Shown piece after piece: positions 52,074 through 62,358 of a stretch of 64,000 nt of DNA. The position numbers were made by a program, and so were the translations under genes. Under the pieces are notes generated by a model. The model saw only the letters and a program-made list of their open reading frames with translations. It was not told the DNA's origin and searched no databases. The stretch is from Oceanicaulis sp. (GTDB taxonomy: Bacteria > Pseudomonadota > Alphaproteobacteria > Caulobacterales > Maricaulaceae). Location of the stretch: the NCBI GenBank assembly GCA_020832735.1, contig JAFIEB010000143.1:26456-90455 (forward strand), written 5' to 3'. The first letter of the stretch is position 1. The number at the start of each line of letters is the position of its first letter.

Positions 52074-53456
52074 ATGCATTTTGGCGTTTTCGACCTGTTC
52101 AAGATCGGCGTGGGGCCATCCAGCTCCCATACGGTCGGCCCCATGAAAGCGGCGCGCGCCTTTCTTGAAAGGGTCGAGGCCGAGCATGGGCTGGACGCCG
52201 TGGCGCGCATCAGGGCGGAAGCCTATGGGTCGCTGGCCCTGACCGGCTCGGGGCATGCGACGGACAAGGCGATCCTGTGGGGGCTGGAGGGCATCCGCCC
52301 CGAAGAGGCCGACGCGGACGCCCTGCCCGGCGTGATCGCCCGCATCCATGAGGAGAAGCGGCTGAAATTGCTGGGCGCGCACGAGATCGGTTTCGATGTC
52401 CAGCGCGACCTGGCCCTGGACGGCGACACCCGGCTGCCCTTCCACTCAAACGCCATGAAATTCAAGGCAATGAATGGGGATGGCGATGTTCTGCGCGAAG
52501 AAATCTGGTACTCCATCGGCGGCGGTTTTGTCATCGACGAGGCCGAGGCCGGACGCAATTCGGCTGCCGAGGCCCATACCGGCGAGCCCTACCCGTTCGA
52601 TAACTGCGATGAGTTGCTGGCGATCTGTGACCGCGAGGGCCTGAGCATTCCTGATGTGATGATGGCCAATGAAACCGCCTTCCGGCCTGAGGCGGAGGTG
52701 CGCGATCATATCGCCTCCATCGCCCAGGCCATGGAGGCGTGTATCGAGCGCGGAACGCGCATTGACGGCGAATTGCCCGGCGGGCTGAAGGTCCAGCGCC
52801 GCGCGCCCGGCTTGCGGCGCAAGCTGATGGCCGCAGCGGCGCGCGCCGAGACCGATCCGCTGGCCTCCATGGAGTGGGTCAATCTGTGGGCCATGGCGGT
52901 CAATGAGGAGAATGCGGCCGGCGGCAAGGTGGTGACGGCGCCCACCAATGGCGCGGCCGGGATCATCCCGGCGGTGGCCCGCTATTATGACCGCCATCAC
53001 CGGCGCAGCGGCGATCAGGACGCCATGGTGCGCTTCTTCCTCACCGCCGCCGCCATCGGCGCTCTGTACAAGAAGAACGCCTCCATTTCCGGCGCGGAAG
53101 CGGGCTGTCAGGGCGAGGTGGGCGTGGCCTGCTCCATGGCGGCGGGCGCGCTGGCCGCGGCGCTGGGCGGCTCCAACCGCCAGATCGAGAACGCGGCGGA
53201 GATCGCGATGGAGCACAATCTGGGCCTGACCTGCGACCCGGTCGGCGGCCTCGTCCAGATCCCCTGCATCGAGCGCAACGCCATCGGCGCGATCAAGGCG
53301 ATCAACGCCGCGCGCCTGGCCCTGATGGGCGACGGCGCCTACAAGGTGAGCCTGGATCAGGTGATCGAAACCATGCGCCAGACCGCGCTCGACATGTCCG
53401 ACAAGTACAAGGAAACCTCCACCGGCGGCCTGGCGGTCAACGTGCCGGTGTGCTGA
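52074..53456 (+). CDS. sdaA: L-serine ammonia-lyase (iron-sulfur dependent)
   Basis: [27 protein letters not shown]...[14 protein letters not shown]...[17 protein letters not shown]; 460 aa. Confidence 0.95.
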
Positions 53457-53459
53457 GGC

Positions 53460-54320
53460 TCACGCCTGCGCCGGAGCGGGCGCCGCCGGCTTGACGGCAG
53501 GGCCCAGGTGAAGCGTGACAAGGGCCGACTCCATGAACACGCCGCGGGTCACATGGTGGCTGATGGCTTGAAGCAGAAACCAGACAGCAGCGAGCGGCCA
53601 CGTATCAGGGAAACCAGGCCCCCTGTTGCCGCCCATGAAATCAATCGACACCTGCGCCCCGCGGGCTGCATCAAACGTCGCTGATATTGCAGTGACCAGA
53701 ACAAATAATAGCGTGATGGCGCCGGTGAATGACCAGAGATGACGCGCCACACCGGTAAACCCGTCAAACACCGACATGCTCCCGCGCGCCATGGTCAGGC
53801 TGACGCCGCAATATAAGCGATGAATGACCACGAACAGAACAAAGGCCAGGGGCAACACAAGTATCGCCATCCATATTGGGGACGCGCCGATAGCATGCTT
53901 CAGAACAAGATAAATCGGCATCGCAACGGCGCCGAACATGATCATGAGCACGAAGCTAATCAAGCAGACAAGCACCCAAGCGCCCAGTTGGCGCGCCTCA
54001 TCGTGACCCAGCCGCCAGGGTATGCCGGACGGCAGGGGCTTGCCGGCCAGAAATCTCTGCCACGCGGTGTCCCACGCCAGAATCGAGATCAGAAACCCGG
54101 CAAACGCCCCGGACAGCACCAGACCCTGCACCCAGGCTTCCGGCTCGCCGTCGAGAAAATACGGCCAGGCCCAGAACCCGGCGAGGAGCATGGCGGCGAT
54201 GAATACGCCATCCGTGGCGATCAGGCGCGCTGCGTCTGTTCGGCGGGCAGCTATCACCCGGAATGTCCGCGTCAGCCCGCCCGCAAGGGTGAAGCGCTCA
54301 ACCGTATTGATGTCCGGCAT
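53460..54320 (-). CDS. uncharacterised polytopic membrane protein, paralog family member A
   Basis: RBS GGGGAGGG precedes the ATG. About 6 TM segments. It shares the family motif W.RF....P.....PWRLGHDEARQLG with the ORFs at 55456, 56439 and 57500. Confidence 0.75.
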   Translation of the reverse strand: MPDINTVERFTLAGGLTRTFRVIAARRTDAARLIATDGVFIAAMLLAGFWAWPYFLDGEPEAWVQGLVLSGAFAGFLISILAWDTAWQRFLAGKPLPSGIPWRLGHDEARQLGAWVLVCLISFVLMIMFGAVAMPIYLVLKHAIGASPIWMAILVLPLAFVLFVVIHRLYCGVSLTMARGSMSVFDGFTGVARHLWSFTGAITLLFVLVTAISATFDAARGAQVSIDFMGGNRGPGFPDTWPLAAVWFLLQAISHHVTRGVFMESALVTLHLGPAVKPAAPAPAQA

Positions 54321-54490
54321 GAATCGCCCTCCCCTTTAGGGAAATATGCCGGGGCCGCGGTCATCGATCAAGCACCTGATTAGTTTATTCTTCCAACCAA
54401 GGTCGCACAGCTTCTGGCTGAGAGGTTGAATGCAACGGACTGTGCCGAAGCAGCCGCCGCCCGCAAGGATCGGATTGCATCCGCCCGGCG

Positions 54491-55459
54491 TCAGTCTGAC
54501 CCTGCCAGAGCCGACCGGGATCGCGCCCGCGCCGCAAAGACGAGCAAAATCAGCGCCGCGGCCGCCATCACAATCAACTGTGCGGCCATTTGGGGCGCGA
54601 TTCCGGACGCCTCGCCCGCCATGCCCGTCGCGGCGCTGAACACGCTCTCCAGCACCTCATCGCCTGATTGGTCAGGGCTCGCCGTATAGAGCGCCAGCGC
54701 TGGCGCGGTCACGGCGATGGCGTTGAAGACGCCATGGGCGCCCGCCGCCTCCAGGATGGAGCCGCGCGTCAGGCTGATGAGGGCGAACACCATCCCCATG
54801 GCCCCGATGGTCGCCAGCGCCATGGCGCCGAACACCAGCCCGGACACGAAGACGTGGGCGTGAAAGATCATGAATACGAGGCTGGAAACGAGCACCCCGG
54901 TGCTGACGCCCCAGCGGGCTGTGAGCGCGCTCATCAGCCAGCCGCGGAACACCCATTCCTCCACCGCGCCCTGGATCAGAAATACAAGGGCGACAAAGGC
55001 CAGCAGCAACACAAAGTCCGCCGGGATCGCGCGCATGTCCACGCTTTCACCCTCAGCGCCCGCCAGCCCGTCGCCTGGCGCGGCGCCTATGAAAGCGGTG
55101 ATCGCCAGCGCCGCCATGCCTGTCAGCACGATGAGCCCGGCGCCGATTCCGGCGCCGGTGAGCAGGCGCAAGGCTGCGCCCCTGCCCTGCACGCCCAGGC
55201 TGGGCAGGCCGCGGCGTTCGATCAGGCTGGTCCAAAGCGCCGTAAGCACGCCCCACAGGACGAACTGCGCCAGCAGCAGGGCGAACATCACCCGCGGCGG
55301 CAGGCCGGCCGATCCGCTCTGTATTGCGTACACGGCCGCCCCGATGATGACCGGCAGGCTGGACAGGGCGTAAAACCCGGCCGCCACGGCGATGGACGCG
55401 GCGCCGGGATAGCTGCGCGCGCGCTCCGGCCAGGGGGCGTAGAGCGCCGTGCGGATCAC
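54491..55459 (-). CDS. CPBP family intramembrane glutamic endopeptidase (Abi/CAAX protease-like)
   Basis: All three CPBP motifs are present: VEEWVFRGWL (EExxxR), FMIFHAH (FxxxH) and AHGVFNA (HxxxN). The GTG start overlaps the stop of the upstream paralog. Confidence 0.85.
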   Translation of the reverse strand: MIRTALYAPWPERARSYPGAASIAVAAGFYALSSLPVIIGAAVYAIQSGSAGLPPRVMFALLLAQFVLWGVLTALWTSLIERRGLPSLGVQGRGAALRLLTGAGIGAGLIVLTGMAALAITAFIGAAPGDGLAGAEGESVDMRAIPADFVLLLAFVALVFLIQGAVEEWVFRGWLMSALTARWGVSTGVLVSSLVFMIFHAHVFVSGLVFGAMALATIGAMGMVFALISLTRGSILEAAGAHGVFNAIAVTAPALALYTASPDQSGDEVLESVFSAATGMAGEASGIAPQMAAQLIVMAAAALILLVFAARARSRSALAGSD

Positions 55460-56442
55460 GCAGCGGCGCCTTGCGCTTTCGCCTCGTCCGGTTCCGGCGC
55501 GCGCCAGGCCAGCGTGACGCCGATCCCGCGCATCAGCGCCGCGCCGCCAACAATGACGACCGACATCAAAACGCTTTCAACAGCGACCAGAAACGCCGCA
55601 CCCGGCCCGTCAAACAGGCCTGCGAACGCGGTGTAGGGATAATAAACCGCAGTTTCCATCGTGACGGCGCCGAAGACCGGCATCACCATCATCTCGCCAT
55701 AGGCGCGCAGCATGCCCGGCCAGAGCTGCCCGGCAAAGCCGAGCCCAAAGAGCGCGCCCAGGTAAACTCCAAAAGCGATGACCCAGGCGGCGGCCGTGCG
55801 CCATAGCGCGCCCTTTGTGGCGCGCCATGCGCCAGACATATCCACCCGGCGGCGCATCACGGCGAGCGCCGGCAAGGCGGAGAATTTGGCCAGGAAGATC
55901 AGCACCGGAATCATAAGAACGGATGTGGACGCGAACACCGCCATCGCGGCGCCAAACGCGATATCATCGGCCATGGCGCCGCCCGCCATTCCGGCTATCG
56001 CGACCAAAACCACGATCATGCCAAGGATCATCCAGACAATCACGCCAACCATGTAAATGCCGAACAGGATGAGATTGGCCACGATCAGACAGCCAAACTC
56101 GGCCCAGCGCATCCGCCAGGGATGCTTTTCGTTGTTGAACAGGCGTATCCAGACCGTTTCGAGCCATAACCAGATCGGGAAGGACAAGAGCGTATATGCC
56201 GTCGCCATCAGACCGGCGCGCTGCAAGTCCATCCTGGCGGCCAGATTCCCTTCGGCGGAATCGAGAAACGCCTGTCCCATCACGCTATAAGAATGAGCGA
56301 TCAGGCAGGTCAGGGCCGCGTAGTAGATCACCGTCACCAGAGCCACGCTCATGAAGGCGCCCGGCCGGCGCGTCAGCACGGTCAGCCACAGCCCGAGCGC
56401 TGCTCGGACGGAAAAAGGCGCCGCCGCCGCCATGCCGCTCAT
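55456..56442 (-). CDS. uncharacterised polytopic membrane protein, paralog family member B
   Basis: The ATG overlaps the stop of the upstream gene (ATGA). About 7 TM segments. It carries the motif WIRLFNNEKHPWRMRWAEFGCL and a second shared block AKFSALPALAVMRRRVDMSGAWRATKG. Confidence 0.75.
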   Translation of the reverse strand: MSGMAAAAPFSVRAALGLWLTVLTRRPGAFMSVALVTVIYYAALTCLIAHSYSVMGQAFLDSAEGNLAARMDLQRAGLMATAYTLLSFPIWLWLETVWIRLFNNEKHPWRMRWAEFGCLIVANLILFGIYMVGVIVWMILGMIVVLVAIAGMAGGAMADDIAFGAAMAVFASTSVLMIPVLIFLAKFSALPALAVMRRRVDMSGAWRATKGALWRTAAAWVIAFGVYLGALFGLGFAGQLWPGMLRAYGEMMVMPVFGAVTMETAVYYPYTAFAGLFDGPGAAFLVAVESVLMSVVIVGGAALMRGIGVTLAWRAPEPDEAKAQGAAA

Positions 56443-57431
56443 TGCGCTGTCTCAGGCTCCGCAGGCGCGGGCGCCGGGGCGGCGTCTGCAGCAACCGCCT
56501 CGCCATGGCGCCGGGCCACATAGGCGCCGACACCGTGCCACAGCCCTTCGAATGTGATCTGAAAGATGAACTGCGTGACAACGATCACGGCGATGATGGC
56601 GATGCCAGCTGGCGAAGTCAGCGTTTCACCCAGCAGCGCGAGAATTTGCGCCGGATCGGACCCTGCCGCCGGGTCGAACGCCATCATCGCCCCGATAAAT
56701 TCCGCAGCCCCGAACAACAGGGCGATCTGCTGGACCATGGAGACCACGACCGCCCCGGCGATCCACACGGCGATCAGGGTCAGATAGGACAGGAACATCA
56801 TGCCCCATACGCCCTTGGACGCGCTGACCGCCTGGAACAGGCGGAAGCGGCGCTTATGCACGCTCAGGGCCGGAGCGGCCGCAAAGCGCAGGCAGATGAT
56901 GATCAGGAACACAACCACCGCCAACACGATCAACGTGCCGACCAGGGCGATAATCGCTGTACCGCCGAAATCCTGAGCGCCGCCGCCGGTTGCAACGATG
57001 GCGGCCACAAGGATGATCGACACGATGTAGACCGCCATCCAGAACATGATGAAAAGCACGTTCACGCCCAGAAGCCGGAACTCGTCCGCGCCCAGGCGGA
57101 AGGGAATCACGGGGCGGATCTCGTCACGCGTCAGCAGTCTGAGCCATGCGCCCTGAGCCATCAGGTAAATCAGAACCCCCGCCAGCCCGAGGAGCATCAT
57201 CCAGCCCATCATCTGCAGGAAGACGGCGATCATCTCGGCTTCGATATCGGCTTCAGCCGCATGGGCCATAAGCTCGAAGACAGGCCAGAACACGGCCAGC
57301 GCCCCGGCGCTGACGGCGCACAGCAACAGCATCTGCCAGAAGCCGATCCACAGCGCGCCCATGGGACGGCGCCCGACAGCGATGAAAAACTGGAAAGTGG
57401 CGGCAACGAAATCATAGCGCGGCCGGGTCAT
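56439..57431 (-). CDS. uncharacterised polytopic membrane protein, paralog family member C
   Basis: It carries the motif WLRLLTRDEIRPVIPFRLGADEFRLLG and a second block LRFAAAPALSVHKRRFRLFQAVSASKG. About 7 TM segments. Confidence 0.75.
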   Translation of the reverse strand: MTRPRYDFVAATFQFFIAVGRRPMGALWIGFWQMLLLCAVSAGALAVFWPVFELMAHAAEADIEAEMIAVFLQMMGWMMLLGLAGVLIYLMAQGAWLRLLTRDEIRPVIPFRLGADEFRLLGVNVLFIMFWMAVYIVSIILVAAIVATGGGAQDFGGTAIIALVGTLIVLAVVVFLIIICLRFAAAPALSVHKRRFRLFQAVSASKGVWGMMFLSYLTLIAVWIAGAVVVSMVQQIALLFGAAEFIGAMMAFDPAAGSDPAQILALLGETLTSPAGIAIIAVIVVTQFIFQITFEGLWHGVGAYVARRHGEAVAADAAPAPAPAEPETAQ

Positions 57432-57499
57432 GGCGCTCCCCCCTCATGGACCAATCATGAAGGCAGAATAACGCGCCGCTGTCGGGCCGTCTTGGGAAA

Positions 57500-58351
57500 T
57501 TACGTCCCGGGAGGCGAATCTGAACGATATTTCACGTACAGCACGCCCAGCGCCGCACAGGCCGGCGCGGCGGCCAGCGCAATCTTGAACAGCCCGTGCA
57601 ATCCGCCAAGGGCCGCAACGACCAACAACGGCGCGGGCGCCTCCATGGCGTCTGTGTAGGCCGCGCCTGGCCAGACGCCGGTCACGGCGGCGGCCGCCAC
57701 GTTCAAGGCCATGAGGATTGCAAGGCCCGGCGCCGCTGCGGCCAGCAGGGTCAGGGCGATCTCGATCCAGCGTCCTGACGAGACCGGCCAGATCGACAGG
57801 ACGCGCACCCGCGCTGAATCGAGCGTCGAAGGCAGGCTCAAGGCCAGGCGCGCGGCGAACCAGAGCGAGAACCCGGCGAAGGCCGCGATCAGCACGCTGG
57901 CCACGATCCACTCGCCCGTGCCGAACAGCGCGTATATGTCCACCGGACCGGACGGCGGTTCGGCGGTCACATCCACATTGATCACCGCCAGAGCCGTGAT
58001 CATGAACATCAGGGCCAGGCCCGCCGTGCCCAGCACGGTGAACAGCAGCACCCAGATCAACGCCATCACGCCCAGCAGCCGGCGTTCGTCATCGCCCGCC
58101 GCGAGGCGCGCGGGCTGGCCCAGCCCGATGCGCACGAAGGCGGCGATTGCGGGAACCACTGCGGCGAACCCGACCAGCATGGCGGCGAGCCAGTGCCAGA
58201 GCGGCCCCGCCCCCGAGGCCAGGCGCGCAGCGGTCACCGCCTCCAGCGAATAGGCGAGCGCGTAAATGAGCCCGGCCAGCAGGGCCAGCCTGGCATGGCG
58301 CAGGGTCAGGGAAAGGCCCGCACGGGCGGCGTTCATATCGATGAGCGTCAT
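57500..58351 (-). CDS. uncharacterised polytopic membrane protein, paralog family member D
   Basis: An internal ATG (cat at 58349-58351) opens MTLIDMNAARAGLSL. It carries the motif FVRIGLGQPARLAAGDDERRLLG and a second block ARLALSLPSTLDSARVRVLSIWPVSSG. The start is uncertain. Confidence 0.7.
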   Translation of the reverse strand: MTLIDMNAARAGLSLTLRHARLALLAGLIYALAYSLEAVTAARLASGAGPLWHWLAAMLVGFAAVVPAIAAFVRIGLGQPARLAAGDDERRLLGVMALIWVLLFTVLGTAGLALMFMITALAVINVDVTAEPPSGPVDIYALFGTGEWIVASVLIAAFAGFSLWFAARLALSLPSTLDSARVRVLSIWPVSSGRWIEIALTLLAAAAPGLAILMALNVAAAAVTGVWPGAAYTDAMEAPAPLLVVAALGGLHGLFKIALAAAPACAALGVLYVKYRSDSPPGT

Positions 58352-58400
58352 GGCGCGGGAGTTAAACCGAAACCTCAGCCGCGCCAAGACGGGTGCGCGC

Positions 58401-59108
58401 TCAGGGCGCAGATGCGGTTTCGAGGCAGATGTCCCGGGACCGCCCCTCCCCGTCATGCACCGTCAGGCAGGGATCGAACACGAAGGTGTAAAGGCTACGG
58501 CGGTTCGAAGTCTGGTGAAGGTTGTAAGTTCCGGTGATTTCCGGGGCCAGCGCCCGGATTCTGTCAGGATAGGCGTAAAAAGACTCCAGTCTTGAATACG
58601 CCCCGTCAGGATTGCGGGTCCAGGCGATCAAAATAGCGGCTTCAGCCGCGGAAGGATCGGCGTCCAGCGCCGGCAGGATGTCAGGGCAGTCCCGCGCCCG
58701 GCGCGGATTCGGGATGGTGAGGAAAGGTGATCTGGCATAACGCGCGTCCAGACGCGGCAATCGCCCAAGCTCGACGCCATACTCGCGCGCAAGCCTGCGC
58801 TCGGTCCCGGTGAGGCCGCCTGCAGCCCGGTCCAGCCGCCCTGCGGCCCAGAAGAAATATGATTGCGGCTCCTCGCTTTGGCCGGCGAGTCCCGCCAGCG
58901 CCGCCATGAAAGCCAGACGCGTTCCGTCCCGCGTGGCCAGGCATCCTTCTTGCGCCAGGGCGTCATAGGCCTCTGCTGCGTGGGCCCCTGCCTCGCCCAG
59001 CGCCCCCCGGTTCCAGGCTTGCGCCGCCGCTTCGGCCAGCATCCGCGCATCCGCCCGTTCTTCGCCAATTGGCGAAGCAGCAAGAGCGAGCAAAAGTGCT
59101 GCAATCAT
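58401..59108 (-). CDS. secreted hypothetical protein, paralog of the upstream TonB-C-like protein
   Basis: The start overlaps the upstream stop (ATGA). It has a signal peptide MIAALLLALAASP and a helical Ala-rich N-terminal half. The C-terminal EAAILIAWTRNPDGAYSRLESFYAYPD...TFVFD loosely parallels the TonB-C module of the preceding protein. Confidence 0.65.
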   Translation of the reverse strand: MIAALLLALAASPIGEERADARMLAEAAAQAWNRGALGEAGAHAAEAYDALAQEGCLATRDGTRLAFMAALAGLAGQSEEPQSYFFWAAGRLDRAAGGLTGTERRLAREYGVELGRLPRLDARYARSPFLTIPNPRRARDCPDILPALDADPSAAEAAILIAWTRNPDGAYSRLESFYAYPDRIRALAPEITGTYNLHQTSNRRSLYTFVFDPCLTVHDGEGRSRDICLETASAP

Positions 59109-60295
59109 GGGAGTTCATCCTGCATACGGAAGTCAAACGTGGTTCGCACGCCCTCGTGCGCCGTTGGCACGCCGTCAACCAGCTTGGGCTCATAGCGCCA
59201 ACGGCGCATTGCACGCAGCGCTGCTTCGCCAAAGACGGGATGAGGCGCGGAGAACACCACATCGGCATCCGCCACACGCCCTTCAGCCGTCACGGTGAAA
59301 GTGATCAGGGTGATGCCTTCCACGCCTGCACCCGCCGCCGCCGAAGGATAGGTGGGAGATGTCCGCCTTATCGGGCGCGCCGACCGGTTGAGCGGGTCGG
59401 GTACGGCGGTCTCTACCTGCTCTTCTTCATCGGCCTCAGCTTCAGCGGCCTCACGTTCGGGCTCAGTCAGAAAGCCTGCCTCGGCCAGGCGGACAATCAG
59501 ATCCCGGCGCTGCGCTGAATTTAAGCGTGAGCGCGCATAGCGCGACCAGACATCGGTGATTGTTATCAGACGGTTACCCTGCTCCTGCAGTCCGAACAGA
59601 TGACCGGCAACAGCAAACCACCAGGCCGAATCATGATGACGGCGGCGCAAGGCGCCATCAACGCCCTGATAGAACGCCATCAGCGGCGCCGAGGCGTGAG
59701 ACTCCAGACCATAGGGTTCGATGACGTCCAGCGCCTCGCGTGCAGCGCCGCCGGCGCGCGTGATAGATCCAAGAGCCCAGTGGGCCCGAGCACGCAACGC
59801 CAGCGCAGCAGCGACATCGCTGTCGCGCTCGGGGTCTGCGCCTGTCGCGCCCGCGGATGCCAGCACAGCGTCAACCTGGTGCAAGACGTCGCGATGTTGT
59901 TCCTCCAGAAAAAACGCCTCAGCGATCAGCCTCTGAACCCTCACAAGATTATTCTTCTGGCTCTCCCCCAATTCGCCAAACAGGTCCGCCGCCAGGCCCA
60001 GCATGGCGCGGGCGTCTGAAAACGCACTGCGAACATAGGCGAACTGACCTGCCGTATCGGCGAGAATCGCGCGCGTGAGAGGATCAACGCCTTCGGCCTC
60101 GGCGGCGCGGTGGGCCTCCAGGACCGCGTCACCCGCGGCTTCGGAATCGCCTGATTGTGATGCGGCCAGATAGCGCTCCCACGCTGTCGCCACGGATTCG
60201 GGTAAGGCCGCTTCATCCCGAGCGTGCGCCGGGGAAAACGTGATCATGCACGCCACAACCACACTCGCCAGCCAACAAACCGTGCTACGATCCAT
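59105..60295 (-). CDS. TonB C-terminal domain-containing secreted protein
   Basis: An internal ATG (cat at 60293-60295) follows GGAAGGGGA and opens MDRSTVCWLASVVVACMITFSPAHA. The C-terminus reads PTYPSAAAGAGVEGITLITFTVTAEGRVADADVVFSAPHPVFGEAALRAMRRWRYEP, which is TonB_C. No Pro-rich spacer or SHLS-type anchor is present. The longer track ORF would overlap the trmFO start. Confidence 0.7.
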   Translation of the reverse strand: MDRSTVCWLASVVVACMITFSPAHARDEAALPESVATAWERYLAASQSGDSEAAGDAVLEAHRAAEAEGVDPLTRAILADTAGQFAYVRSAFSDARAMLGLAADLFGELGESQKNNLVRVQRLIAEAFFLEEQHRDVLHQVDAVLASAGATGADPERDSDVAAALALRARAHWALGSITRAGGAAREALDVIEPYGLESHASAPLMAFYQGVDGALRRRHHDSAWWFAVAGHLFGLQEQGNRLITITDVWSRYARSRLNSAQRRDLIVRLAEAGFLTEPEREAAEAEADEEEQVETAVPDPLNRSARPIRRTSPTYPSAAAGAGVEGITLITFTVTAEGRVADADVVFSAPHPVFGEAALRAMRRWRYEPKLVDGVPTAHEGVRTTFDFRMQDELP

Positions 60296-60417
60296 TTGAA
60301 TTTCCCCTTCCCATTTCTCGCCTCTCAAGGGAACCCCGGATTGGCGTTCAGCGTCAACTTGAAAGCGCTTCCAACCGGGCTTTCGCATGGGGGTCCTGAC
60401 GCTTATATCTGCCGCCC

Positions 60418-61818
60418 ATGACAAACCCGATACACATTATTGGCGGCGGCATGGCCGGCTGCGAGGCGGCCTGGCAGGCGGCCGGGGCCGGCGCGCGCGT
60501 CGTGCTGCACGAGATGCGCCCGGTGCGCGGCACCGAAGCCCATCAGACCGACGGGCTGGCCGAGCTCGTGTGCTCCAACTCCTTCCGCTCCGATGATCAC
60601 GAGACCAACGCGGTGGGCCTTCTGCACGAAGAGATGCGCCGCGCGGGCTCGCTGATCATGGCCAAGGCCGACATGGCGCGCGTTCCCGCCGGCGGGGCGC
60701 TGGCGGTGGACCGCGATGTGTTCAGCCAGGCGGTGACGCAGGCTATCGAGGCTCACCCCAATATCGAGATCGTGCGCGAGGAAATCGCCGGCCTGCCGCC
60801 CGAGGACTGGGACAGCGTCATCATCGCCTCCGGCCCCCTCACCTCGCCCGCGCTGGCCGAAGCGGTGCATGGCCTCACCGGCGAAGGCGAGCTGGCCTTC
60901 TTTGACGCCATCGCCCCGATCATCCACGCCGGGTCCATCGATATGGGCGTCGCGTGGAAGCAGTCGCGCTATGACAAGGGCGAGACCGAGGAAGACAAAG
61001 CCGCCTATATCAACTGCCCGATGGACCGCGATCAGTACGAGGCCTTCATCGACGCGCTGATCGCGGCGCCCAAGACCGAGTTCAAGGATTGGGAGAAGGA
61101 CACCCCCTATTTCGACGGCTGCCTGCCGGTCGAGGTGATGGCCGAGCGCGGGCGCGAGACGCTGCGCCACGGACCGATGAAGCCGCGCGGCCTGACTAAC
61201 GCCCACAAGCCCGACGACAAACCCTACGCCGTCGTGCAGCTGCGCCAGGACAATGCGCTGGGCACGCTGTTCAACATGGTCGGCTTCCAGACCAAGATGA
61301 AGTATGGCGCGCAAGCCGATGTATTCAGGATGATTCCAGGGCTGGAGAATGCCAGCTTTGCGCGCCTTGGCGGCATTCACCGCAACACCTTCCTGAACTC
61401 GCCGCGCCTGCTGGACGGCGTGATGCGCCTGAAGGCGCGCCCGTCCTTGCGCTTCGCCGGTCAGATCACCGGGGTGGAGGGCTATGTGGAGAGTGCGGCC
61501 ATGGGGCTTCTGGCGGGCCGCTTCGCCGCCGCCGAGCGCCTGGGCCAAGCGCTCACGCCCCCGCCGCCAACCACGGCGCTGGGCGCGCTGCTGACCCACA
61601 TCACCACAGGCCATGTGCCGGGCCGCAAGGGCGCGTTCCAGCCCATGAACGTGAATTTCGGCCTGTTCCCGGAGATGGAGGGCCCCAGCCGCGGCCCCAA
61701 TGGCGAACGCCTGCGCGGCGCCGCCAAGGCCCAGGCGAAAAAGCGCCTGATGACCGCGCGGGCGCTGGCCGATCATGACGCCTGGCTGAAGGGCGCGATG
61801 TCTCAGGCGGCGGAGTAG
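60418..61818 (+). CDS. trmFO: methylenetetrahydrofolate--tRNA-(uracil-5-)-methyltransferase
   Basis: [33 protein letters not shown]...CSNSFRSDD...[14 protein letters not shown]; 466 aa. Confidence 0.95.
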
Positions 61819-61828
61819 CGCCGCCGCC

Positions 61829-62263
61829 TTACCCGGCCAGATGCGACGCCTGCTCCGGCTCGCCCGCAGCGGCGAGGGTTTCGGCCACCGCGCATTGTGC
61901 TCTCGTTGTCTTGCCACAGGTGCGAAGCGAAGCTTCCAGCTGCGCTTCGATCTGGCGCAGATCGGCGATCTTGGCCCGCACCGTCTCCAGATGGCTTGAG
62001 GCCAGCTCATCGATCGCGCCGCATTCGGCCTGCCTGTCTTCGAGAAGATCGAGCAGATTCGACACGGCGGCCAGAGAAAAACCGAGACTGCGTCCGCGGC
62101 AGATGAAGCGCAGCCGCTCCTCCTGAGCGCGGGTGTAGGTGCGGTGTCCGCCCTCAGTGCGCACGGGCGCAGGCAGCAAGCCCAGCCGTTCGTAATAGCG
62201 GATCGTCACCACCTTGCAGCCGGTGCGCCGGGACAGCTCTCCGATGGTCAGGGTCTCGTGCAT
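61829..62263 (-). CDS. MerR family heavy-metal-responsive transcriptional regulator
   Basis: An internal ATG (cat at 62261-62263) opens MHETLTIGELSRRTGCKVVTIRYYERLGLLPAPVRTEGGHRTY (MerR HTH). A coiled-coil follows, then Cys residues at ..AECGAID.. and ..RTCGKTTRAQC.. as in metal-sensing members. Confidence 0.85.
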   Translation of the reverse strand: MHETLTIGELSRRTGCKVVTIRYYERLGLLPAPVRTEGGHRTYTRAQEERLRFICRGRSLGFSLAAVSNLLDLLEDRQAECGAIDELASSHLETVRAKIADLRQIEAQLEASLRTCGKTTRAQCAVAETLAAAGEPEQASHLAG

Positions 62264-62270
62264 GACAGGC

Positions 62271-62301
62271 TTGAACCTATAGCGACTATAGAAATTACGC
62301 T
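62271..62301 (+). promoter_or_regulatory. MerR-type promoter with 19-bp spacer containing the dyad CTATAG-cga-CTATAG
   Basis: TTGAAC (62271-62276) is followed by a 19-nt spacer and TACGCT (62296-62301). The dyad lies at 62277-62291. The site sits between the divergent merR-like gene and the receptor gene. The over-long spacer is the hallmark of MerR-activated promoters. Confidence 0.55.
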
Positions 62302-62358
62302 GCGCAGCGACTCGGTCGGCTGATGGCCGCACTGCCGCCTGAGATGGGGATTATTCGC

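Follow-up and report, generated by a model that had tools for sequence, protein, structure and literature searches.

A CPBP intramembrane protease gene within a conserved block of membrane-protein paralogs in Oceanicaulis and other Caulobacterales

Introduction

Intramembrane proteases of the CPBP family have been associated with a dedicated membrane partner in several systems, among them SpdC with WalK and MroQ with Agr in Staphylococcus aureus, and Abx1 with CovS in group B Streptococcus. Here we describe a locus in which a CPBP gene is embedded among genes for a family of paralogous membrane proteins. It lies in a stretch of 64,000 nucleotides from Oceanicaulis sp. (contig JAFIEB010000143.1, positions 26,456 to 90,455; referred to below as the window) and comprises seven genes, g1 to g7, of which g1 and g2 encode secreted proteins, g3, g4, g5 and g7 the membrane paralogs and g6 the protease. 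In common with the described CPBP-partner systems, g6 is a bona fide CPBP protein that is genetically coupled to polytopic membrane proteins. In contrast to SpdC, MroQ and Abx1, and to the known fusions of an ABC-2 permease with a CPBP domain, the partner is an unnamed family of proteins with six transmembrane (TM) helices that is present as two to six paralogs, and the window locus lacks any kinase, peptide-signal or ABC component. Few bacterial CPBPs have a known substrate or partner, and the locus provides a robust genetic pairing of one such protease with a single membrane family.

Two further groups of described proteins bear comparison with the block. Members of DUF898 (YjgN, PF05987), DUF4013 (PF13197) and GPDPase_memb (PF10110) are similar to the paralogs in size and multi-TM layout but lack their cytoplasmic motifs, which are particular to the paralog family; the paralogs in turn carry no attached phosphodiesterase domain. 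The searches made did not find a characterised member of DUF898, DUF4013 or GPDPase_memb. DUF898 genes may often be neighbours of genes for M48 (Ste24-like) peptidases, a point given no weight here. PuuD was considered as a characterised DUF898 protein and was discarded, since section 7 of the relevant article (PMC4562309) gives DUF898 once and DUF989 twice, which looks like a slip. The C-terminal 80 residues of g1 form a canonical TonB_C domain in which the YP motif is present. Unlike TonB, g1 has a Sec signal in place of the anchor helix and TPR-like repeats with an acidic linker in place of the Pro-rich rod, the absence of anchor and rod agreeing with the initial annotation of the locus, and unlike the TonB-ExbB-ExbD system the cluster contains no exbBD genes.

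The CPBP and TonB_C domains are all that Pfam, NCBIfam and PADLOC recognise within the block, and the combination is described neither there nor in the literature found, which bears out the earlier statement that no such system had been reported. Literature searches on CPBP with Caulobacter or TonB, on DUF4013, on DUF898/YjgN and on a Caulobacter CAAX protease returned nothing relevant; a paper on the Cdz bacteriocin does include a CaaX protease, which is unrelated.

Organisation of the seven-gene block

The seven genes are co-directional on the minus strand across 53460-60295 and are listed here with their lengths in amino acids (aa).

g1, 59105-60295, minus strand: 396 aa; the chosen ATG is preceded by a ribosome-binding site, GGGAAGGGGAA
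g2, 58401-59108, minus strand: 235 aa, small secreted protein, partial paralog of g1
g3, 57500-58351, minus strand: 283 aa, membrane paralog 1, six TM helices
g4, 56439-57431, minus strand: 330 aa, membrane paralog 2, six TM helices, hub of the paralog family
g5, 55456-56442, minus strand: 328 aa, membrane paralog 3
g6, 54491-55459, minus strand: 322 aa, GTG start, CPBP/Rce1-like glutamic intramembrane protease
g7, 53460-54320, minus strand: 286 aa, membrane paralog 4, 170 bp away from g6

Four-base-pair overlaps of the ATGA/GTGA type join g1 to g2, g4 to g5 and g5 to g6, so that the start of g5 overlaps the stop of g4 and its stop overlaps the start of g6. The remaining gaps are of 49, 68 and 170 bp. 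These features match exactly between the initial annotation and the listing of open reading frames (ORFs). The g3 ORF is open up to 58456, which would allow a start 35 codons earlier, and the 283-aa version is preferred because orthologs are of 281-295 aa. Judged from its layout and from the comparisons that follow, this is a real, tightly packed seven-gene block, probably inherited vertically in Caulobacterales, and it is conserved across deep divergence.

Conservation of gene order

Forty related loci were annotated by hidden Markov models (HMMs) for g1-type (T), g2-type (2), paralog (M) and CPBP (C) genes. A collinear T-2-M-M-(M)-C-(M) pattern was found that spans Alkalicaulis, Oceanicaulis, Glycocaulis, Marinicauda, Woodsholea and Maricaulis. 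Paralogs and CPBP occur together in 33 of the 40 loci, confirming that the neighbourhood is conserved outside this genome; 20 of the 40 additionally have a g1-type TonB_C gene, and a paralog downstream of the CPBP gene, as in the window, is present in 14. The estimated stop-to-start distances between the upstream paralog and the CPBP gene centre on a median of about 1 nt, with 21 of 39 loci in the range from -11 to +4, and the two genes are coupled in most of the 39. A g3-like and a g4-like gene are present as a pair in the loci checked, even in those with two genes left. Oceanicaulis sp. HTCC2633 has paralogs and a CPBP gene and lacks g1 and g2. The usual chromosomal slot is between trmFO and uvrA. 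In the window and in A. satelles, genes for L-serine dehydratase (SDH) and tryptophan 2,3-dioxygenase (TDO) stand in place of uvrA, with the cluster order still collinear.

The arrangement extends to more distant members of the order. In L041, a metagenome-assembled genome (MAG) of Caulobacteraceae, trmFO is followed by three paralogs and a CPBP gene whose product is 27% identical to g6, again with a 4-bp overlap. In Robiginitomaculum, which is of low G+C, the order is trmFO, a g1-type gene, one minus-strand gene, two paralogs, CPBP, a paralog, in some cases a further CPBP, and uvrA. The further CPBP gene lies past the last paralog in the three Robiginitomaculum loci L124-L126 (for example L126, 5752-12872), and second CPBP genes within the array were recorded in L037, L125 and L126. 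The opposite-strand gene between the g1-type gene and the paralogs in L124-L126 encodes an unrelated polytopic protein of 349-365 aa with no Pfam match. The six paralogs of Caulobacter sp. BK020 (L039, 2632-8939) are arranged as two triplets with a GST gene between them.

A metagenome scan with the CPBP alignment returned 80 related CPBP loci. Paralogs were found only beside the six CPBPs nearest to g6 by HMM score, setting aside two unlinked outliers, and in 22 metagenome loci a same-strand AraC-type regulator precedes the CPBP gene with no paralog as neighbour. The occurrence of unlinked CPBPs in other contexts indicates that the link to the paralogs is specific to certain CPBP lineages and is not a property of CPBPs sampled generally. 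The paralog-free CPBPs related to g6 (L043-L094) make up a large sister group, and the 22 loci with the AraC-type regulator represent a different conserved context.

The membrane paralogs

The four membrane proteins had been described as diverged paralogs and this is upheld by two methods. BLASTP among the window proteins relates g4 to g5 (2e-8) and g4 to g7 (2e-5). With ortholog alignments drawn from 31 genome loci, hhalign gave E-values of 4e-30 for g4-g5, 2e-28 for g4-g7, 6e-16 for g5-g7, 1.5e-10 for g3-g4 and 1.7e-9 for g3-g7. The g3-g5 comparison is weak when taken alone (4e-4, probability 34%) and all four proteins are joined through g4, with values of 1e-10 to 4e-30. No match of g3, g4, g5 or g7 to the CPBP protein g6 was obtained with hhalign. 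By these profile comparisons g3, g4, g5 and g7 are true paralogs, related well above chance.

The loop motif quoted for each of the four proteins, and a second shared block, were found at the expected positions. In general form, the first family motif, R-x-G-x-D-E-x-R, follows TM2 and the second, R-(F/L)-x-x-A-P-A...T-K-G, follows TM4. The instances below were read in the sequence.

g3 loop motif, 58070-58108, minus strand: RLAAGDDERRLLG
g4 loop motif, 57066-57104, minus strand: PFRLGADEFRLLG
g4 second motif, 56835-56891, minus strand: LRFAAAPALSVHKRRFRLF
g7 loop motif, 53982-54020, minus strand: PWRLGHDEARQLG

The g5 loop motif is degenerate (PWRMRWAEFGCL). Hydropathy together with counts of Lys and Arg, which are 17 inside against 0 outside for g4 and 13 against 1 for g3, predicts six TM helices for each protein, with both termini on the cytoplasmic side and the two family motifs in cytoplasmic loops rich in these residues. 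This agrees with the cytoplasmic placement of the loop motif that had been proposed initially. An AlphaFold2 (AF2) model of g4 has six long helices, with a predicted local distance difference test score (pLDDT) of 88 and a predicted template modelling score (pTM) of 0.82. A Foldseek search of this model against the PDB returned nothing significant (E >= 0.19, TM-score <= 0.27). The top non-significant matches were to the long helices of ABC-exporter membrane domains, and at those values an ABC-exporter-type fold could not be assigned to g4. A PDB profile search with the paralog family likewise gave no meaningful match.

The family extends far beyond this genome. One search found 46 homologs of g4, and a g4-family profile, run against 1.84 billion representative proteins, matched 1,594 clusters with E <= 1e-3 and 701 with E <= 1e-10, which puts the family at about 1,600 clusters at 50% identity. 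An exact-protein look-up found no record identical to the g4 of the window. The same two cytoplasmic motifs dominate the consensus of 77 distant family members. All named members belong to Caulobacterales (Maricaulaceae, Hyphomonas, Henriciella, Robiginitomaculum and Caulobacter), which hints at a lineage-specific envelope function. The proteins tested share profile homology, six TM helices, the RxGxDExR loop and the R(F/L)xxAPA...TKG block, as expected of a new family, with the degenerate g5 loop as noted above.

A well-characterised family to which the paralogs could belong was not found in Pfam, the PDB or the literature. Pfam gave no match to g3, g4, g5 or g7 at E <= 1, DUF898, DUF4013 and GPDPase_memb included. 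Among the 77 distant relatives there are weak matches to DUF898 in 14 (best 1e-6), to DUF4013 in six and to GPDPase_memb in three (best 2e-6); for the only relative with a printed score, the DUF4013 match is at 22.0 bits and thus below the gathering cut-off of 26.9 bits. The truncated UniRef label of the A. satelles ortholog of g4 is that of a glycerophosphoryl diester phosphodiesterase-type protein. The family is so far unnamed; it is no orphan of one genome, having about 1,600 clusters and being faintly linked with DUF898, DUF4013 and GPDPase_memb.

Some distant members carry additional sequence. Long C-terminal tails of 100-150 residues were seen in P0085, P0100, P0157 and P0163; they are acidic or rich in Pro and Ala, except that in P0163 the tail consists of HGHDDHGH-type histidine repeats, which suggests metal binding. 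P0188 joins a Ser/Thr protein kinase domain to a downstream N-terminal portion of the paralog family domain, after which the protein breaks off abruptly; it may be a real fusion of kinase and membrane protein or the result of a chimeric or truncated assembly.

The CPBP protease

The g6 protein matches the Rce1-like family PF02517 at 52.1 bits against a cut-off of 22.4 (E 8e-14). The three catalytic motifs are as follows.

g6 EEWVFR, residues 167-172, 54944-54961, minus strand: EExxxR motif
g6 FMIFH, residues 196-200, 54860-54874, minus strand: FxxxH motif
g6 HGVFN, residues 242-246, 54722-54736, minus strand: HxxxN/D motif

Among 13 orthologs, E160, R164, H192 and H234 do not vary and E159 and N238 hardly do; the catalytic E, E, R, H, H and N are conserved in the paralog-linked CPBPs. 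On the strength of these motifs and the Pfam match, g6 is a CPBP/Rce1-like glutamic intramembrane protease with its catalytic motifs intact, and the initial placing of such a protease between paralogs 3 and 4 was correct. The EExxxR motif is likely to lie at the cytoplasmic end of a helix. The best NCBIfam match of g6 is to the CPBP half of the ABC-2 permease/CPBP fusion NF041647 (4e-11, 42 bits against a cut-off of 435). Scores against the NCBIfam subfamilies MrtJ, MrtS and Mrt_core were 31, 23 and 17 bits, below the respective cut-offs of 75, 130 and 100.

The secreted proteins

Two features of g1 locate it outside the cytoplasm and relate it to TonB.

g1 signal peptide, 60221-60295, minus strand: MDRSTVCWLASVVVACMITFSPAHA, with an AxA cleavage-type site, read in the sequence
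g1 TonB_C domain, 59126-59359, minus strand: residues 313-390, by Pfam, NCBIfam and PDB profile

Classic Sec signal peptides are found at the matching position in about 20 orthologs of g1. The TonB_C domain is recognised by PF03544 (1.3e-16, 61.3 bits against a cut-off of 24.6) and by TIGR01352 (60.5 against 27.1), and a profile of 16 g1 orthologs matches the TonB C-terminal domains 2k9k, 6fip and 1u07 in the PDB at 8e-27 to 1e-19. Positions 75-147 of this profile, in the N-terminal half, match consensus TPR proteins. Against TonB equivalog models g1 scores 27-56 bits where the cut-offs are 265-448, and it falls short of a TonB energy transducer. Because it combines TonB_C and TPR profile matches with Sec-type signal peptides, g1 is read as a putative periplasmic TPR-like/TonB_C protein and not as a TonB.

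By hhalign the g2 protein is a homolog of the second of the helical modules in g1, with a probability of 96% and an E-value of 4.7e-9, and at low confidence hhalign extends the C-terminus of g2 to the TonB_C region of g1. Searches of g2 against Pfam, NCBIfam and PDB profiles gave no match, TonB_C included, and the model obtained by AF2 from the single sequence has a pLDDT of 47. The two proteins had been taken for TonB-C-like secreted paralogs: the TonB_C domain of g1 and the homology of the pair over the TPR-like helical module stand, whereas a TonB_C domain could not be demonstrated in g2. Four cysteines (C56, C141, C214 and C228) are conserved in the ortholog alignment of the g2 family and this conservation suggests a disulfide-bonded periplasmic protein.

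Proposed role and alternative explanations

The reading we tentatively prefer, and regard as possible though short of probable, is that of a housekeeping operon in which the paralogs form an inner-membrane assembly, the CPBP protein acts on or with its subunits and g1 and g2 serve as periplasmic accessories. With this reading we infer co-transcription, a hetero-oligomer, a functional link between protease and paralogs, a role for g1 and g2 and a physiological function for the whole. The six-TM subunits g3, g4, g5 and g7 would make up the assembly, with their conserved residues in cytoplasmic loops, and a hetero-oligomer of g3-like and g4-like subunits is suggested because the two subfamilies co-occur in the loci checked. 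The protease would most likely act on or with the paralogs, in processing, turnover or control of assembly, and would do so from the cytoplasmic or inner-leaflet side, which fits the predicted cytoplasmic position of both its catalytic motifs and the conserved loops of the paralogs. The g1 and g2 proteins would probably tether or couple the assembly to a partner in the outer membrane or cell wall. The lack of a PADLOC match and of mobile-element or toxin genes, together with the fixed chromosomal slot, argues for a housekeeping envelope function over immunity or defence.

Several observations weigh against this reading. Hyphomonas-type loci have two or three paralogs and neither CPBP nor TonB_C, in Caulobacter sp. 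BK020 six paralogs lie in the trmFO-uvrA interval and neither gene is present, and the Maricaulaceae MAG L028 has paralogs without CPBP. Since paralog arrays persist without CPBP or TonB_C, the protease is not essential to the paralogs. A pair of genes for a TonB-dependent receptor (TBDR) and a MerR-family regulator (L001, 12925-15482) is inserted between CPBP and the g7 homolog in A. satelles, and in the window a gap of 170 bp separates g6 from g7, although their homologs in the Oceanicaulis locus L008 overlap by 4 bp. In a rough neighbour-joining tree the linked CPBPs fall into two groups and form no single clean clade. All loci come from one order and shared ancestry could account for part of the synteny. 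Finally, no known homolog lends support to a function of the block. The earlier view of a system-like block can thus be retained for a conserved and tightly packed unit, and not for an obligate one, given the Hyphomonas-type loci and the one Caulobacter with paralogs only; what is old and universal is the array of paralogs that occupies the trmFO-uvrA slot.

These same points lend some weight to an explanation by descent alone, in which the paralog, CPBP and TonB_C/TPR genes are functionally unrelated neighbours in a slowly rearranging region of the Caulobacterales chromosome. Every locus is from the one order and the same slot, the paralogs are retained in several lineages from which CPBP or TonB_C is absent, and insertions are tolerated, as with the TBDR-MerR pair in L001 and the minus-strand gene in L124-L126. 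We consider this unlikely, if with a real chance of being correct, as the overlap or abutment of the paralog stop and the CPBP start survives protein identities as low as 27-45% and a large shift in G+C, the cluster kept its collinear order while its flank changed (SDH and TDO having replaced uvrA both in the window and in A. satelles), and CPBP genes have been duplicated within the array (L037, L125 and L126). If the genes are independent, the finding shrinks to a conserved hypothetical operon. A part in TonB-related uptake or signalling, with the paralogs as a permease or channel and the TonB_C domain of g1 in contact with a TonB-dependent receptor, would make use of a genuine TonB_C domain and of a receptor gene that is near the cluster in the window and inside it in A. 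satelles, and the non-significant Foldseek matches to ABC-exporter membrane domains point the same way. Such a role is improbable: g1 has a cleavable-type signal peptide and neither membrane anchor nor Pro-rich spacer, none of the genes called in the loci examined encodes ExbB/ExbD or an ATPase, the conserved residues of the paralogs are in cytoplasmic loops and not intramembrane, the position of the receptor is not conserved, and the fold matches have a TM-score <= 0.27 and E > 0.1.

Bacteriocin immunity is an established role of CPBP/Abi proteins, and multi-copy membrane proteins could serve as decoys in an Abi-type arrangement guarding against a bacteriocin, toxin or phage. This possibility, raised at the outset, is disfavoured and we rate it as highly improbable. 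Toxin, bacteriocin and exporter genes were not found adjacent to the block, PADLOC gave no match for the seven proteins, and the position is a fixed one in the core genome across genera, of ordinary G+C and with no variable island; the sigma-70-like box upstream of g1, described below, also speaks against it. Trimming by g6 of a C-terminal sorting signal on g1, g2 or other secreted clients, in the manner of the Mrt proteases and myxosortase, has in its favour the weak NCBIfam matches to MrtJ, MrtS and Mrt_core and the presence of secreted proteins in the same operon. It is scarcely credible when all three scores are far under the curated cut-offs (31/75, 23/130 and 17/100), the C-termini of g1 and g2 are soluble with neither TM helix nor basic tail, and many loci with paralogs and CPBP have no g1 and g2 genes.

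The preferred reading of a housekeeping operon can be taken further, to a new envelope system of the dimorphic, stalked Alphaproteobacteria in which the CPBP protein would set the composition or activity of the hetero-oligomer and the TPR/TonB_C protein would provide the link to the outer membrane or cell wall. This extension is speculative and we think it doubtful; if true, it would give a first role to a member of the DUF898/DUF4013-like superfamily and add a new class of CPBP client. The locus makes the role of a chromosomal CPBP directly testable in tractable relatives, and would open functional access to an unannotated family of about 1,600 clusters and to its distant DUF898, DUF4013 and GPDPase_memb relatives.

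Upstream region and flanking genes

A promoter-like element precedes the first gene of the block.

GTTGACG, 60352-60358, minus strand: -35-like box in the trmFO/g1 intergenic region, 56 nt ahead of the g1 start

In most orthologous loci a GTTGAC(G/C) box is found about 55 nt upstream of the first cluster gene, and TTGAC(G/C) may represent the -35 element of a sigma-70-type (housekeeping) promoter. A conserved TTCCCTTG lies about 20 nt downstream of the box in the window and its closest relatives. In a promoter and terminator scan the counts were at chance level, and an Rfam scan of the locus matched no family.

The genes on the g1 side of the block are the following.

trmFO, 60418-61818, divergent from g1: flank on the g1 side, with a 122-bp trmFO/g1 intergenic region
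MerR-family regulator, 61829-62332, minus strand: just past trmFO
TonB-dependent receptor, His-rich at its N-terminus, from 62362 to the end of the window: beyond the MerR regulator

The flank on the g7 side holds the genes for L-serine dehydratase and tryptophan 2,3-dioxygenase, and no mobile-element or toxin genes were found at the locus. The pair formed by the MerR regulator and the TonB-dependent receptor, past trmFO in the window, is inside the cluster in A. satelles; this shift implies a local rearrangement, and rearrangement may be behind the 170-bp gap between g6 and g7 in the window. The G+C of the cluster is 0.60-0.70, similar to its surroundings. The AT skew of the plus strand is 0.19-0.31 over the cluster (window 53000-58500) as against about 0-0.1 in the flanks, consistent with T-rich codons for the hydrophobic residues of membrane proteins encoded on the minus strand.

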